Part shown: positions 3,926 through 61,368 of the stretch, one piece after another
How the letters are laid out: each line of letters opens with the position of its first letter
Position numbering within the stretch: position 1 is the first letter of the stretch
Source: Vicinamibacteria bacterium
GTDB lineage: Bacteria; Acidobacteriota; Vicinamibacteria; Vicinamibacterales; JAENWD01
Direction of reading: 5' to 3'
Assembly: GCA_963800785.1 (NCBI GenBank)
Contig: CAWDCH010000013.1
Coordinates: 141,877-205,876 of the forward strand
Length of the DNA: 64,000 nucleotides
Notes under the pieces: model-generated
Databases searched by the model: none
Told to the model about the DNA's origin: nothing
Seen by the model: the letters and a program-made list of their open reading frames with translations, nothing else
Made by a program: the position numbers and the translations under genes

Positions 3926-4735
3926 ACGGATCGGACAAGTCACGGACGGACGCGGATGGCTATGGATCAATAGAAGGTCGCGGAGGGACGCGGGCTACAC
4001 GGACTGATTTTGGGCGGCCAGTCACGGGCAACGCATTGCAGGGGTCGCGCCGAAAACGGAAGCGGGCCAGAGGTCACGGACAAACGCGGATGGTCACGGA
4101 TCGACAGAAGGTCACGGAGGGACGCGGACGGTCACGGATTGACAAGGTCACGGACGGACGCGAACGGTCACGGATTGACAGAAAGTCATGGACAGACGCG
4201 ACGCGGACTTCACGGACTGTTGAACGGGCCGGTCTCGGGCGGCGCATGGTGGGGTCGCGCCGGGGACGGTAACGGATCGGAGGTCACGGACAGACGCGGA
4301 TGGTCACGGATCGACAGAAGGTCAAGGAGGGACGCGGACTACACGGACTGTTGAACGGGCCGGTCTCGGGCAACGCATGGTGGGGTCGCGCCGGGGACGG
4401 TAACAGATCGGAGGTCACGGACAGACGCGGATGGTCACGGATTGACAAAAGGTCACGGACGGACGCGGACGGTCACGGATTGACAGAAAGTCATGGACAG
4501 ACGCGGACTTCACGGACTGTTGACGGCACCGGGCTCGGCACGCATCGTGGGGTCGCGCGTCGGCCGGAGGCCGACGCGGGTCGAGTCGCGAGTGCGGACC
4601 GCAAGCCGCCTTCACCATCCCCACGCGGCTTGCGATCCGCACTCACGACTCGACTCAGCCGCGCGTCGCGTGGCGCGACCCTCGTCGTAGGGTGATGCCC
4701 GGCTGCTTCCGTGAACTTCCGTGTAATCCGTGACC
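3926..4735. repeat. composite word-repeat array (GTCACGG words, 131-bp higher-order repeat, inverted terminal words, 30-bp-arm hairpin)
   Basis: 14 exact and 8 one-mismatch GTCACGG words on the plus strand. Module CACGGACTG...GGGGTCGCGCC occurs at 3998, 4211, 4342 and 4511. Inverted words CCGTGA/CCGTGT/CCGTGACC lie at 4706-4735. Hairpin 4580-4609 / 4625-4654. Confidence 0.9.
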
Positions 4736-24671: not shown

Positions 24672-24776
24672 GCAAGGACGAAGGACGAAGAATGAGGGAC
24701 GAAGGACATGCGCTGAACAAGGCGTCCCTCGTCTCTCCTCCGTCGTCCTTCGTCCCTCGTCACTCGTCCCTCGGCC
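24671..24776. repeat. word hairpin (GGACGAAG / GAGGGACGA words and their complements)
   Basis: GAGGGACGAAGGAC (24694-24707) is perfectly complementary to GTCCTTCGTCCCTC (24744-24757). Further complementary words flank this core. Confidence 0.7.
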
Positions 24777-25885
24777 TCTACCTCCACATCCCCTTTTGCG
24801 CGCATATCTGCAACTACTGCAACTTCAACCGCGGTCTGTTCGATGAGCAGTTGAAGCGGGAGTATGTCGACGCGCTGGTGCAGGAGATTGGGTCGTCGGG
24901 CGACGGGTCTGCGGCAGACACTATTTTCTTTGGTGGCGGCACGCCGTCACTCCTGTCGGGCGAGGATGTCGGTCGGTTGATTGACGCCTGTCGCGACGCC
25001 TTCGACGTCGCGCCTGATGCCGAAGTCACCCTCGAAGCCAATCCCGAAACGGTGAGCGTCGAGAAGATTGCGGGCTACCGCGAGGCCGGCGTCAACCGCA
25101 TCAGCCTGGGCGTGCAATCCCTGGACGATCGGGAGCTCGCACGGCTCGATCGGCAGCACAATGCGGCGCGTGCGCGCCAGGCGTTGACCGACGTGCGGGC
25201 AGCCGGCATCGACAACGTCAGCCTCGATCTGATGCTGTGGCTGCCACAGCAGCGGCTCGAGGACTGGCAGTCGACGATCAACGGCCTCATCGAGCTCTCG
25301 CCGGACCACGCGTCCCTCTATCTCCTGGAGCTCTATCCCAATGCGCCGTTGAAGGAGTCCATCGCGCGGGAACGCTGGTCGCTTGCGCCCGAAGACGACG
25401 CGGCGGACATGTATCTGTGGGCGCTGGAACGCCTGGACGAAGCGGGGTACGAGCAGTACCAGATCTCGAACGTCGCGCGCGCCGGCCGAGTCGCGCGTCA
25501 CAACCTGAAATACTGGCGCGACGGGTCGTGGATTGGATTCGGGTGCGGCGCGCATTCGACGCGCGGCGCGTGGCGATGGGCGAACGTCGCCGGAACACGC
25601 GACTACGTTACACGTGTGACGAATGGCCTCTCCGCCGCCGACACGCGACGGCAGCGGACGGAGCAGGAGCGCCTGGAAGATGCGCTCTTCACCGGATTGC
25701 GGCTGTCCGAAGGCCTCGATCTGGACGTCATCGGCGGCCGTTACGGGGTCGATGCCTGGGACCGCTACGGCGACAGCCTCCGGCTGCACGAATCTGCCGG
25801 ACGTCTCAAGATCGACGGCCACCGCGTGCAGCTGACGCGCAGCGGAATGCTGGTCGCCAACGACGTGATGACCGTTTTCATCTAG
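24692..25885 (+). CDS. hemW: radical SAM heme chaperone HemW / coproporphyrinogen-III oxidase-like protein
   Basis: LGLYLHIPFCAHICNYCNF (CxxxCxxC), FFGGGTPS and GVNRISLGVQS. The nearest in-frame start upstream of the conserved core is ATG 24692, which lies inside the hairpin repeat. Confidence 0.85.
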   Translation: MRDEGHALNKASLVSPPSSFVPRHSSLGLYLHIPFCAHICNYCNFNRGLFDEQLKREYVDALVQEIGSSGDGSAADTIFFGGGTPSLLSGEDVGRLIDACRDAFDVAPDAEVTLEANPETVSVEKIAGYREAGVNRISLGVQSLDDRELARLDRQHNAARARQALTDVRAAGIDNVSLDLMLWLPQQRLEDWQSTINGLIELSPDHASLYLLELYPNAPLKESIARERWSLAPEDDAADMYLWALERLDEAGYEQYQISNVARAGRVARHNLKYWRDGSWIGFGCGAHSTRGAWRWANVAGTRDYVTRVTNGLSAADTRRQRTEQERLEDALFTGLRLSEGLDLDVIGGRYGVDAWDRYGDSLRLHESAGRLKIDGHRVQLTRSGMLVANDVMTVFI

Positions 25886-26553: not shown

Positions 26554-26710
26554 AACAACGAGCTCAGAGTGACGAGCTCTGAACGCGGAACCGCGAACGA
26601 CGAACGAACGCGGGGGTTCGTCCCCGTTCGGCGGTCGTCGCGCGGCGTTCAGAACTCGTCACTCACAGTTCGTCGCTTTGAGCTCGTTGTTCGTTGTTCT
26701 GAGCTCGTTG
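26554..26710. repeat. long imperfect word hairpin (ACGAGCTC / ACGAACGA words) between convergent genes
   Basis: GAGTGACGAGCTCTGAACGC (26566-26585) pairs with GCGTTCAGAACTCGTCACTC (26646-26665). Inner and outer words are also complementary. Confidence 0.75.
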
Positions 26711-26719
26711 TCCGTAAAG

Positions 26720-30730: not shown

Positions 30731-31585
<855 letters not shown>

Positions 31586-31594
<9 letters not shown>

Positions 31595-31759
31595 GTGCCA
31601 AGTGCTAAGTGCTAAGTGGAGTGGGGAGTGGCTAGTGGAGAGTGGTTGCAGGACTGGTCAGATTGTCGCAGCTACGAGGAGCGGGGGGCTAGTCAGCCAC
31701 CACTTCCCACGACCCACTTCTCACTCCACTTAGCACTTGGCACTTAGCACTTGGCACTG
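31586..31759. repeat. word hairpin family copy 1 (CAGTGC[YAAGTGC]n AAGTGGAGTG... arms, ~58 bp each, ~50-nt core)
   Basis: The left arm (31586-31645) and right arm (31697-31759) are near-complementary. Both arms closely match the arms of the element at 61171-61353. Confidence 0.85.
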
Positions 31760-31771
31760 CTTTGGAGGTCC

Positions 31772-32707
31772 ATGAGTATCGTCGTCACCGGTTCCATCGC
31801 CTACGACTACCTGATGTCGTTCCCGGGCAAGTTCACCGAACACCTATTGCCCGAGCACGTGCATCGCGTGAGCCTGAGCTTTCTCGTCGACACCATGGAC
31901 AAGCGTCGCGGCGGCTGCGCGCCGAACATCGCGTATACGCTGGCGCTTCTCGGCGAGCGGCCGCGGCTGATGGGTACGGCAGGGCAGGACTTCGGCGACT
32001 ACCGACATTGGCTCGAAGCCGCGGGCATCGACACATCGCTCGTCGGCGAAGTCCCGGACAAGTTCACGGCGTCGTTCTTCTGCAGCACCGACCAGGACAG
32101 CAACCAGATTGCGTCCTTTTACACGGGAGCGATGGCTAACGCCGCCGAGCTCTCGTTTCGGACGGCGGGCACCGTGACGCTGACGATCATTGCGCCCAAC
32201 GATCCGCAGGCGATGCTGCAGTACACGGAGGAATGCCGCACGCTCGAGATCCCCTTCATCTTCGATCCAGGCCAGCAGTGTGCGCGGATGTCAGGAACGG
32301 AGCTCGCGGATGCGCTGAATGGCGCGACCGTGCTGATCCTGAACGACTACGAGCTCGAGCTGCTCCGGCAGAAAACCGGCCTCGACGAGCGCGAGCTGAT
32401 CGCCCGAACGGGAACGCTCGTCGTGACGCGCGGCGAGGAAGGCTCGACCATCCTGACGGCGGACGACGAGATCCGGGTTCCCGCCGTGAAGCCGCACCGC
32501 ATCGCTGACCCAACGGGCGTTGGCGACGCGTTTCGCGGCGGCTTCATGAAGGGAATGGTTGCCGGCCTGGACCTGGAAACGTCCGGACGGCTGGGAAGCG
32601 TCGCGGCGACCTACGCCCTCGAGCACCTCGGCGGATCCAGCCATGCATACACGTGGGAGGATTTTGCGGGCCGCTATGAGGAGCATTTCGGGCCGCTTCG
32701 CGGATAG
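31772..32707 (+). CDS. PfkB-family carbohydrate/nucleoside kinase (adenosine kinase-like)
   Basis: ATG 31772 is preceded by GGAGG. Sequence includes SIVVTGSIAYDYLM, GGCAPNIAY and the C-terminal DPTGVGDAFRGGF. Confidence 0.85.
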   Translation: MSIVVTGSIAYDYLMSFPGKFTEHLLPEHVHRVSLSFLVDTMDKRRGGCAPNIAYTLALLGERPRLMGTAGQDFGDYRHWLEAAGIDTSLVGEVPDKFTASFFCSTDQDSNQIASFYTGAMANAAELSFRTAGTVTLTIIAPNDPQAMLQYTEECRTLEIPFIFDPGQQCARMSGTELADALNGATVLILNDYELELLRQKTGLDERELIARTGTLVVTRGEEGSTILTADDEIRVPAVKPHRIADPTGVGDAFRGGFMKGMVAGLDLETSGRLGSVAATYALEHLGGSSHAYTWEDFAGRYEEHFGPLRG

Positions 32708-45502: not shown

Positions 45503-45965
45503 ACAGACCACAAAACTGCAGACCACGGACCGCAGACCACAGGCCGATTCAGGCCCGCGGTCCTTCGGCGTCGATCACGACGATCAACTTCTGCAAGGTC
45601 CTGATGGTCTGAACGCTGTAGTTTTGCAACGAGATTGAGCGTCCTCACTCAGTAAAGACTGGCGCCTGCTCAAGTCGATTAGGTAGTCGGTTTCGCAGGC
45701 TGAGGATAGGGCTATGTCCAGGAAGCGTCGGTAATCGCGCTCCGATGTCCTTTGCAGACCCTTCGACGATATTGGCCGGAATCGACATTGCGGTACGTCG
45801 TAACTGGCTTTGTATTACGAACCGTCCGGTGACCGGGAACGCCTTGGTCTCTTCATAGATGCAAAGCGCGAGGGCATCGGCGAGGTGGAAGGCCTTGAGC
45901 TTTCTGTGGTCGTGTCTGTGGTCTGGAGTCTGTAGTCTGGAGCCTGTAGTCTGTAGCCTGTCACT
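45503..45965. repeat. inverted word arms (CAGACCACRG left, CTGTGGTCT/CTGTAGTCT right) enclosing a four-helix-bundle gene remnant
   Basis: The left arm (45503-45543) and right arm (45903-45965) are built from mutually complementary words. The enclosed gene fills the space exactly. Confidence 0.75.
45549..45914 (-). pseudogene. four-helix-bundle protein (23S rRNA intervening-sequence protein / Avd-like family), no start codon and at least one frame shift
   Basis: My three-frame reading gives DHRKLKAFHLADALALCIYEETKAFPVTGRFVIQSQLRRTAMSIPANIVEGSA, then a shift near 45751-45753. It continues RTSERDYRRFLDIALSSACETDYLIDLSRRQSLLSED, then a probable second shift near 45640, then SISLQNYSVQTIRTLQKLIVVIDAEGPRA*. 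Confidence 0.75.
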
Positions 45966-47186: not shown

Positions 47187-47195
47187 CGGGAGTGG

Positions 47196-47319
47196 CCTGC
47201 GGGCTTCGGGCTACGGGCCACAGCTTGCCCAAGCTAAAGCTTGGGCCTACGACTGCCTGCGCAGCGATCGTACGCAGGCCCGAGCTTCAGCTCGGGCAGC
47301 CTGAAGCCTGAAGCCTGCC
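47196..47319. repeat. compound hairpin element (outer GGCTTCGGGCT / AGCCTGAAGCC words plus three perfect short hairpins)
   Basis: Hairpins are at 47227-47246 (8 bp, loop TAAA), 47255-47279 (7 bp) and 47278-47297 (8 bp, loop TTCA). The outer words are complementary with one G-U type mismatch. Confidence 0.6.
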
Positions 47320-55546: not shown

Positions 55547-55658
55547 GAATCCGCAATCCGAATCGGCAATCTAACTCTGCACTCTAAATCCGCAATCCAG
55601 TCCGCAATCCAATCCGCGATCCAATCCGCAATCCACAATCCGCAATCCGCAATCCGAA
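55547..55658. repeat. direct word array (AATCCGC / AATCCGCAATCC), no complementary arm
   Basis: About 12 same-orientation copies or variants of AATCCGC run up to 2 nt before the lpxI ATG. Confidence 0.7.
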
Positions 55659-55659
55659 G

Positions 55660-56490
55660 ATGCGCCTGGGTCTAATCGCCGGTAACGGTAGATTTCCGTT
55701 TCTGGTGCTCGATGCCGCACGCGCGCAGGGCCACGACGTCACGATCGTCGCGGTGAAGGACGAGGCCTACCCGGACCTCGCCGACCTGGCGGCCAGATCC
55801 CCGCAGGCGCCCATCCACTGGGTACCGCTTGGTCATCTCGGCACCTGCATCAGAATCCTGAAGGACGCCGGCGTCAGCCATGCGGTGATGGCCGGACAGG
55901 TGAAGCACACGAAGATTTTCAGCGTCATGCCGGACTTGACGTTGCTCTCCGTGATTGCACGTCTGAAGGCCCGCAATACCGACGCGCTCATCTCGGCGGT
56001 GGCCGATGTCCTGCGTGAGAAAGGCATAGCGCTACTCGACTCCACCGAGCTGCTGCGGCCGCTGCTGGCGACGCCTGGTGTGCTGACATCGCGCGCGCCG
56101 AACGCCGCGGAGGAGGCGGACTTCGCATTCGGATATCGGATGGCGGATGCGATCGCGGGACTCGACATCGGGCAATCGATCGCCGTGCGGGACGCGGCGG
56201 TAGTGGCGGTGGAGGCAATGGAGGGGACCGACGAAATGATCCGACGCGCCGGTCGTCTGGCGGGGCAGGGGATCCGGGTGGTGAAGGTGGCAAAGCCCAG
56301 ACAGGACATGCGTTTCGACGTGCCCGTCGTCGGCGCGGCGACGATCGCCGTGATGCGAGAGGTTGGCGCGACGGCCCTTTCGGTGGACGCCGGCAAAGCG
56401 CTGCTCATCGACGGTCCCGACGTCGTTCGCGTCGCCAACGATGCCGGCATCGCCATCGTCGGTCGCGCAGTAGTGGAGGCGGGGCTCTAA
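55660..56490 (+). CDS. lpxI: LpxI-family UDP-2,3-diacylglucosamine diphosphatase (DUF1009)
   Basis: [21 protein letters not shown]..., [10 protein letters not shown] and [26 protein letters not shown]. It sits in a lipid A gene context. Confidence 0.8.
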
Positions 56491-61159: not shown

Positions 61160-61170
61160 ACTGACGCTGA

Positions 61171-61353
61171 CAGTGCCAAGTGCCAAGTGCCAAGTGGAGT
61201 GAAGAGTGGAGAAGTTTGGAGTGGTGGGTATGAGTTACGTCGTTGCCGTTCTTGTTTGATTGGTCGCACAGTCGACGATCTGACCGATTGAGCCACTAGT
61301 CACTTTCCCACTTCTCACTCCACTTCGCACTTCGCACTTGGCACTTGGCACTG
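61171..61353. repeat. word hairpin family copy 2 (same arms as 31586-31759, ~64-nt core)
   Basis: Left arm CAGTGCCAAGTGCCAAGTGCCAAGTGGAGTGAAGAGTGG...; right arm ...CCCACTTCTCACTCCACTTCGCACTTCGCACTTGGCACTTGGCACTG. Confidence 0.85.
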
Positions 61354-61368
61354 TACAGTTCTTCCCCA

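Follow-up and report, generated by a model that had tools for sequence, protein, structure and literature searches.

Known since 1993, the intervening sequences of rRNA and the S23p/PF05635 ORFs within them have no accepted origin or function (PMC4990558). They are found in the 23S and 16S rRNA of Leptospira, Coxiella, Brucella and Xanthomonas, where terminal inverted repeats close a loop that holds the PF05635 gene (PMC4990558). In Coxiella, the terminal stem is 28 bp long and is cut by RNase III, and tandem heptamers (GACAGAT) lie just upstream of the S23p ORF (PMC4990558). The Xanthomonas S23p protein, Xcc0516, is cited there as a pentameric ring (PMC4990558). PF05635 genes have also been noted in rRNA insertions of CPR bacteria and within cas operons (PMC3936711). 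Heptamers are the commonest long simple repeats in bacteria, with TAACTGA arrays as an unexplained case (PMC4679880). Here we report that two inverted repeats in a 64,000-nt stretch of Vicinamibacteria DNA (the window) belong to a family of gene-less derivatives of a hairpin-bounded PF05635 element, a family that is large and old and has been passed on vertically.

Both repeats, copy 1 at window positions 31585–31760 and copy 2 at 61170–61354, belong to one dispersed inverted-repeat family. The two arm sequences quoted in the original prediction were recovered from the window at the places given for them, and copy 2 is the second copy that had been announced about 30 kb away. A repeat search of the window found the arms of copy 1 (31585–31649 and 31696–31760; 65 nt, 46 nt apart) to be 85% complementary and those of copy 2 (61172–61224 and 61293–61345; 53 nt) to be 81% complementary. 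The arms are therefore complementary as described, but "near-perfect" somewhat overstates the match, since each heptamer has a variable base at which mismatches recur. RNA folding, suggested earlier as a check, gave −126.4 kcal/mol for copy 1 (z = −13.3) and −101.9 kcal/mol for copy 2 (z = −8.9), and in neither case was any of 200 shuffles as good. Tandem Repeats Finder detected period-7 words in all four arms, and each arm has one occurrence of the junction 17-mer AAGTGCNAAGTGGAGTG, making four in the window (G+C = 64.6%) vs 0.34 expected. Searching the whole window against Rfam at gathering thresholds returned no match, and no rRNA.

Copy 1 lies between mtnP (S-methyl-5'-thioadenosine phosphorylase; 30731–31594, + strand; TIGR01694 above cut-off), the 3' end of which enters the element, and a PfkB-family (nucleoside/ribokinase-like) kinase gene directly downstream (31772–32707, + strand). 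The end of mtnP, CTG CAG TGC TAA (31583–31594), falls within the first words of the left arm, which thus supplies the stop codon as had been claimed, and the same YLQC-stop ending is kept in the ortholog L038; the kinase ATG at 31772 is likewise 12 nt past base 31759. The left arm (31585–31649, unstranded; delimited by repeat search, Tandem Repeats Finder and arm alignment) consists of a G, the outer words CAGTGCT, AAGTGCC, AAGTGCT and AAGTGCT (31586–31613), the junction AAGTGGAGTG (31614–31623) and the inner words GGGAGTG, GCTAGTG and GAGAGTG (31624–31644), followed by GTTGC. Complementary to this grammar, the right arm (31696–31760, unstranded) has inner words at 31701–31721, CACTCCACTT at 31722–31731, four GCACT words at 31732–31759 and a final C. 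The termini CAGTGC and GCACTG were thus correctly placed, except that the conserved terminus extends by one base on each side, to the G at 31585 and the C at 31760. Between the arms, alignments to the leader of the full-length element described below define a core (31644–31695, + strand) with the leader-homologous motif GGTTGCAGGACTGGTCAGATTGTCGC (31644–31669) in the orientation of the missing gene. Gene callers can be misled here, as a TTG start was called within the arm at 31751.

Copy 2 lies between a methyltransferase and an amidohydrolase gene, and its flanks are unrelated to those of copy 1. Its left arm (61170–61224, unstranded) has only three outer words, CAGTGCC, AAGTGCC and AAGTGCC (61171–61191), rather than four, then AAGTGGAGTG (61192–61201) and degenerate inner words, and its right arm (61293–61354, unstranded) has CACTCCACTT at 61316–61325 and four GCACT words at 61326–61353. 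The core, of a long type of ~70 nt (61225–61292, − strand), is inverted relative to that of copy 1 and includes the leader-derived motif TCGACGATCTGACCGATTGAGCCAC (61272–61296). Most long intergenic spacers of the window carry word repeats.

The spread of the family was assessed by scanning one representative genome per species (185,579 species, 596 Gb) with the junction 17-mer. At least 112 loci matched and, among the matches listed, ~60 were in Vicinamibacteria or other Acidobacteriota (metagenome-assembled genomes). Three single genomes had at least 26, at least 17 and at least 12 loci, respectively, vs ~0.005 per genome by chance, and the other listed matches were single and consistent with chance (~280 expected in 596 Gb). 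Gene-less hairpins probably number in the hundreds per genome, the lower bounds being 12–26 loci in each of three genomes. The genes flanking the window copies are ~80–88% identical to Vicinamibacteria assemblies that carry the family. The original prediction of a dispersed family depended on there being copies elsewhere, and at least 55 more loci were found in Vicinamibacteria genomes. The chance that there is no family and that the copies arose by assembly duplication or local replication slippage is negligible: the words are tandem and the number of outer words varies (three vs four in copy 2), as slippage would have it, but the flanks are unrelated, orthologs are present in several independent long-read assemblies, and dozens of loci per genome follow one fixed grammar. 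An attC/integron-cassette reading was dropped because housekeeping genes, and not cassette arrays, surround the scattered copies.

To define that grammar, 104 arms were aligned, anchored on the junction. An arm reads G, [C/A]AGTGCn, AAGTGCn, [A/G]AGTGCn and AAGTGCn, then AAGTGGAGTG, three nnnAGTG words and G-Y-GGC; five AGTG(C/G) words spaced exactly 7 nt apart are thus followed by four more AGTG, giving nine AGTG motifs in total. The 104 arms share this grammar of ~64 nt and are not a repeat of variable length, and the word cores stay constant over hundreds of copies and between species. The AGTG(C) positions were 95–100% conserved and the n positions near random, with the qualification that collecting loci by an exact 17-mer inflates conservation at positions −7 to +9 of one arm per locus. 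A single arm is a run of direct heptad repeats starting G[C/A]AGTGC and is not palindromic. Almost every element had an AGTG-array followed by a CACT-array, separated by loops of 3 to 99 nt, and ~10 solo arms were also found.

In relatives, the same arms bracket the gene for a ~124-aa PF05635/TIGR02436 "23S rRNA intervening-sequence" protein (IVP). At loci L022 and L065, the arms are ~500 nt apart with the PF05635 gene between them (E = 2e-7). The L022 protein has 48 homologs of 118–132 aa, annotated as PF05635 four-helix-bundle proteins and sharing many invariant residues; TIGR02436 matches scored 54 and 77 bits vs a cut-off of 24, and the L022 protein matched the five-chain PDB entry 2RLD (E = 7e-18). 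Intact IVP orthologs share a conserved location between LytTR response regulators, with complete AGTG-family arms flanking the intact gene in L113 and L114/L115 and, in the more distant L116 and L117, arms of GAGTGC words on both sides. Folding of the complete L113 element brings its arms together around the ORF (−303 kcal/mol, z = −7.6).

These full-length relatives are built like rRNA intervening sequences. Complementary termini close the element in both window copies and in L113, and a PF05635 gene occupies the loop in L113, L114/L115, L116, L117 and L022. The window copies are ORF-less, and ORF-less versions exist among rRNA intervening sequences as well; heptamers beside the ORF are found in Coxiella too. 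Unlike rRNA intervening sequences, which sit in an rRNA helix, the copies described here lie between protein-coding genes, their ~64-nt arms are built of degenerate words in a fixed grammar, their gene-less derivatives have been amplified, and RNase III processing is proposed for them by analogy. A tblastn search of the retrieved loci with two IVP sequences revealed no further IVP genes, and the independent AGTG-type full-length loci therefore amount to one conserved locus in several genomes. PF05635 was the only ORF found between arms, at this one locus and in a different-word element in the window, with no other ORF between arms in ~550 kb. No AGTG-type IVP gene was found within the window. 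The different-word element (45505–45962, − strand) consists of inverted heptamer arrays, CAGACCA-type at 45505–45545 and CTGTGGT/CTGTAGT-type at 45900–45962, around a frameshifted PF05635 gene (~45587–45902, − strand; E = 4.7e-11), with a PF05635 score of 43.3 bits vs a cut-off of 33.8 over 45645–45899.

The gene-less copies are linked to the full-length element through their cores. A leader motif, GCnnAATCGGTCAR, is common to full-length and gene-less copies, including both window copies, and the first leader bases of the L113 element, GTGGTGGCAAAATCGGTCA, align with the gene-less cores in the same orientation in copy 1 and inverted in copy 2. Since both window cores are homologous to the element's leader, the copies are internal-deletion derivatives. 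The ~70-nt core of copy 2 is of a type found at no fewer than seven independent genomic sites, which indicates that a single deletion derivative has been amplified.

Bacterial MITEs, such as the Correia elements of Neisseria and the enterobacterial ERIC sequences, share with these hairpins inverted termini, variable cores, an origin by internal deletion and a location inside operons, and Correia hairpins in transcripts are targets of RNase III. Terminal inverted repeats, small size, lack of an ORF and many copies are MITE traits that were all observed here, whereas a target-site duplication and a transposase-encoding parent were not, the parent encoding PF05635 instead. Alignment of the copies, from which termini and target-site duplications were both to be read, defined the former and gave no sign of the latter, as no direct repeat was present in the flanks of 43 elements. 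It is very improbable that the family consists of conventional MITEs that descend from an insertion sequence with a DDE transposase, in which case the 64-nt arms would be terminal inverted repeats containing multiple transposase-binding sites. Long terminal inverted repeats with sub-terminal motifs, a variable interior, deletion derivatives and high copy number would all suit such an origin, but it is contradicted by the missing target-site duplications and by ~550 kb of related sequence in which no transposase was found between arms. The variable positions are also saturated while the word cores are intact, unlike the neutral decay of dead copies; compared with Correia and ERIC elements, conservation is periodic (cores fixed, spacers free) rather than a uniform decay. 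Complementary flanks, which would be a sign of insertion into an older terminator stem, were absent, and neither empty-site polymorphism nor a catalytic protein was found. We therefore infer mobility solely from the fact that a deletion subfamily has been amplified.

The copies are old and vertically inherited. Many elements were found at orthologous positions across species-level genomes, with both flanks 77–91% identical; copy 1 has orthologs at L038 and L008, and copy 2 at L054 and L057, the latter having lost the whole core and kept the arms. Across 15 orthologous pairs, word cores were 85% identical (~96% where no word had been gained or lost), and the variable bases were 45% identical vs ~36% between unrelated arms. 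To judge from these comparisons of sequence, the word cores may be held either by purifying selection or by frequent conversion among copies, and gene conversion could, as an alternative to selection, account for constant cores combined with shuffled variable bases.

We compared the left arm with the reverse complement of the right at the variable positions of 33 pairs and observed that they matched no better than shuffled partners (z = −0.5 for outer and +0.8 for inner words). Watson-Crick plus G-U pairing at variable positions was 54.5% vs 52.3% for shuffled partners (z = 1.4), and word cores paired at 90%. Compensatory changes, a search for which had been suggested as a check, were thus absent between arms in both tests. 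Because the variable positions are no more complementary within an element than between different elements, the hairpin is a by-product of the shared word grammar; and as AGTG(C) is kept while n is randomised without compensation, the arms look like periodic recognition sites and not just a stem. These results indicate that conservation applies to the sequence, at intervals of 7 nt, and not to base pairing. A structured non-coding RNA under selection for its fold would be expected to have compensatory changes, and neither these nor an Rfam match were found.

Element position was examined relative to genes called with a crude GC3-based ORF caller, by which 25 paired elements lay between tandem, 18 between convergent and 8 between divergent genes (intergenic background 157, 71 and 66, respectively); at least one "divergent" call, that for L057, is wrong because the orthologs of this locus are tandem. 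In 36 of the 42 elements facing a gene 3' end, the stop codon was within −25 to +20 nt of the terminus (median +4), and convergent spacers were often wholly filled by the element. These observations, together with persistence at orthologous sites, retention of the arms of L057 after loss of its core and the great stability of the stems, would fit a host-selected RNA structure that ends or protects transcripts at gene 3' ends independently of IVP, as a terminator, a block to 3' exonucleases or an RNase III site, with the parent element as a historical source only. Also in favour of this explanation, the IVP gene at the LytTR locus is a pseudogene in MFD00392 (L065), a genome that still has many well-kept AGTG hairpins; either other paralogs serve in MFD00392 or the protein is not needed for hairpin maintenance. 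We nevertheless consider a host-selected structure unlikely. It predicts compensatory changes, of which none were seen, the word-core sequence being conserved instead, and it leaves unexplained the solo arms, the 4+1+3 word grammar and the A-N-T-G of the 5' arm across distant lineages (see below). A terminator scan of 31300–32000 gave no terminator-like sites, and copy 1 has no T-tract or intrinsic-terminator pattern (the sequence directly after the stem is CTTTGGAGG in copy 1 and TACAGTTC in copy 2). About 8 of the 51 paired elements were, by the same crude gene calls, in divergent spacers. No sigma-70 pattern was found at copy 1.

Conservation of sequence rather than pairing, and the existence of solo arms, would equally suit arrays to which a regulatory or nucleoid-associated protein of the host binds as double-stranded DNA, and in which the inversion reflects symmetric assembly and not a hairpin; with a 7-bp period, every third word would face the same side of the helix. 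We regard such arrays as improbable, as they explain neither the deletion-derivative relationship nor the bracketing of PF05635 genes by lineage-specific words in nearly all lineages, and we know of no candidate host protein.

The generality of this bracketing was assessed by scanning metagenomes with an IVP protein alignment, which gave 80 loci at 36–77% identity, 53 of them non-redundant and with enough flank. An inverted repeat scoring ≥30 was present between the flanks of 48 of these 53 loci (median 52); among 274 displaced control windows (median 18, maximum 30), two scored as high. Word arms are therefore a general companion of PF05635 genes. At the 48 loci the word period was 7 in 29, 9 in 18 and 8 in one, and the words differed by lineage (AAGTGCn, AATGCGR, GAATKCA, AATGTCG, GATTGCC, GGATTGC, ATTGCCAAA and others). 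On the coding strand, the 5' arm contained A[AGT]TG 89 times vs 13 times for its complement. Gene-less hairpins made of the same words as the local IVP arms were found elsewhere on the same contigs, at L117 (GAGTGC), at L178, L179, L183, L186 and L188 (AATGCGR), and at L144. The terminal word was also genome-specific, with GA preceding AGTGC in 28 of 39 arms of MFD09212 and [G/A]C preceding AGTGC in ~75% of arms of the two other genomes; IVP-flanking arms matched the terminal-word type of their own genome, a co-variation that is in part simple co-inheritance since arms and gene are physically linked. None of the open-access papers searched was found to connect PF05635 genes with inverted arms made of words, or with the amplification of gene-less derivatives.

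The population biology of the family resembles that of REPIN-RAYT systems, which also comprise many hairpins at gene 3' ends without target duplication and with long vertical inheritance, a gene at a conserved locus flanked by the same repeats, and genome-specific repeat variants (PMC3116915, PMC3337134). Hairpins of ~100–190 nt, mostly at gene 3' ends and at the copy numbers given above, without target-site duplication and vertically inherited as REPINs are (PMC3116915, PMC3337134), might accordingly owe their mobility to a single-copy Y1 (IS200-like) transposase whose gene lies elsewhere in the genome, with the IVP gene as a passenger. This is highly unlikely: the arms are direct heptads instead of the 20–40-nt imperfect palindromes with a GTAG/CGTC head that characterise such repeats (PMC3733652), the only ORF between arms is PF05635, and word arms accompany this gene in 48 of 53 lineages. 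No RAYT gene flanked by repeats was found among the loci examined. The gene here encodes a small helical protein without known catalysis and not a Y1 transposase, and the repeats are heptad arrays and not REP palindromes. Overall, we class the element with the intervening sequences, as a type that is located outside rRNA and whose population biology is REPIN-like.

Two further systems bear comparison. The STRR repeats of cyanobacteria are intergenic tandem heptamers. So are the TAACTGA repeats of Beggiatoaceae, Cyanobacteria and Bacteroidetes (PMC4679880). Both resemble the arms in being intergenic 7-nt arrays that are lineage-specific and often beside start or stop codons. They differ in being near-perfect direct repeats of variable copy number that are almost never inverted (1 of 170 sets in BOGUAY; PMC4679880) and for which no linked protein gene is reported, whereas the arrays described here are inverted pairs of fixed grammar around PF05635 genes. 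A connection between these heptamers and the word hairpins is possible. The Avd protein of diversity-generating retroelements has a PF05635-relative fold, forms a pentameric nucleic-acid-binding barrel and acts on a specific RNA beside its own gene (PMC10053308). In contrast to Avd systems, no reverse transcriptase, template repeat or variable repeat was found beside the IVP genes examined, and the words had no adenine-specific variation. Adenine mutagenesis of this kind as the origin of the variable bases was dropped, as there is no variation at the conserved A's within the words.

Taken together, we regard it as fairly probable that the window copies are deletion derivatives of the IVP element whose transcribed stem is cut by RNase III and whose words are read by IVP. 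When a host operon such as mtnP-kinase is transcribed, the arms would pair into an imperfect stem of ~60 bp. This stem is a candidate RNase III substrate, by analogy with the homologous rRNA intervening sequences, and its cleavage would probably uncouple the cistrons on either side or make them more stable. The words are putative recognition sites of the pentameric IVP, the link between protein and words being correlative. Since IVP is a homopentameric ring, to judge from PDB 2RLD and from Xcc0516 (PMC4990558), one subunit could bind one word, and the five outer words would fit five subunits; 7 nt of extended single strand is, by our estimate, about the right length per subunit. The match between five words and a pentamer is only suggestive, because the nine AGTG motifs are not a multiple of five and other lineages have 3.5–6 words or many more. 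To our knowledge, PF05635 proteins have no nuclease or recombinase activity. By analogy, IVP may bind, maintain or propagate its own element and, in trans, the gene-less copies, much as a single-copy RAYT does for its REPINs.

More tentatively, we propose as a possibility that PF05635 proteins in general read tandem words, one ring subunit per 7–9-nt word. Together with their arms they would then constitute a widespread, previously unrecognised class of transposase-less selfish or domesticated elements that populate genomes with many gene-less hairpins, and the classic intervening sequences of rRNA would simply be those copies that had inserted there.

In Vicinamibacteria, which are abundant but poorly studied soil bacteria, the present analysis traces a large share of the intergenic DNA to its parent element. 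The hairpins supply stop codons, sit within operons, can mislead gene callers and are likely to break short-read assemblies. For PF05635 proteins, the question of function gains a testable motif, namely AGTGC at 7-nt spacing or its lineage equivalents, which accompanies the gene in nearly every lineage sampled. If it is true that these proteins are word readers, some of the unexplained heptamer repeats between genes in other phyla might be accounted for in the same way.

[quoted passage not shown] This gene, which is frameshifted, lies on the minus strand at ~45587-45902, between inverted heptamer arrays that are CAGACCA-type on the left and CTGTGGT/CTGTAGT-type on the right, and the element as a whole (45505-45962) takes up the entire spacer separating a pair of plus-strand genes.

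Two other heptamer hairpins were found in the window. The arms of the hairpin at 24674-24777 (~33 nt, 82-84% complementarity) set AAGGACG/GGACGAA heptamers against CGTCCCT/CGTCCTT heptamers, and the start of a HemN-like gene lies shortly downstream. The hairpin at 26554-26715, in a 377-nt spacer, has longer arms (49-54 nt, 70-78% complementarity) made up of heptamers ending in ACG (AACAACG AGCTCAG AGTGACG ...) and their complement. A 133-nt spacer also contained small palindromes flanked by short heptamer arrays (47195-47317), CGGGCTA-type on the left and AGCCTGA on the right.

Approximately 17 AATCCGC heptamers in tandem (55548-55656) occurred in a single orientation only, directly upstream of a gene starting at 55660; their reverse complement, GGATTGC, is an arm word around PF05635 genes at two metagenome loci (L193 and L196). 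An 800-nt spacer (3937-4734) was full of nested GGTCACGGAC-type 10-mer repeats with periods of 10, 20, 38 and 131 nt, and included a 30-nt hairpin with 93% complementarity at 4580-4654. These repeats are resembled by a 10-mer word hairpin (GGGTGCGGAC) at 1317-1571 of the related locus L117.

Comparison of the AGTG copy at window 61170-61354 with the orthologous site in two related loci (L054 1359-1547 and L057 4760-4857) revealed that L057 has lost the ~70-nt core by deletion and retains both arms, with a loop of just 3 nt between them. In genome MFD00392, the PF05635 gene of the conserved locus between LytTR response regulators (L065 5434-6081) carried in-frame stops and frameshifts; some of the frameshifts could be sequencing errors, as the assemblies are long-read. 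Despite this damage, AGTG hairpins look well conserved at 12 or more loci of MFD00392. In the assembly MFD09212, the same element and flanks were present in opposite orientation on two contigs (L017 5178-5318 and L055 6457-6597); because this pair is probably a duplicated contig, L055 was excluded from by-genome counts.

At the AGTG copy at window 31585-31760, the mechanical ORF list started the downstream PfkB-type kinase at a TTG within the right arm, at 31751, which adds 31751-31771 to the gene. Comparison with orthologs indicates that the real start is the ATG at 31772, and start-codon calling can be misled by word hairpins.
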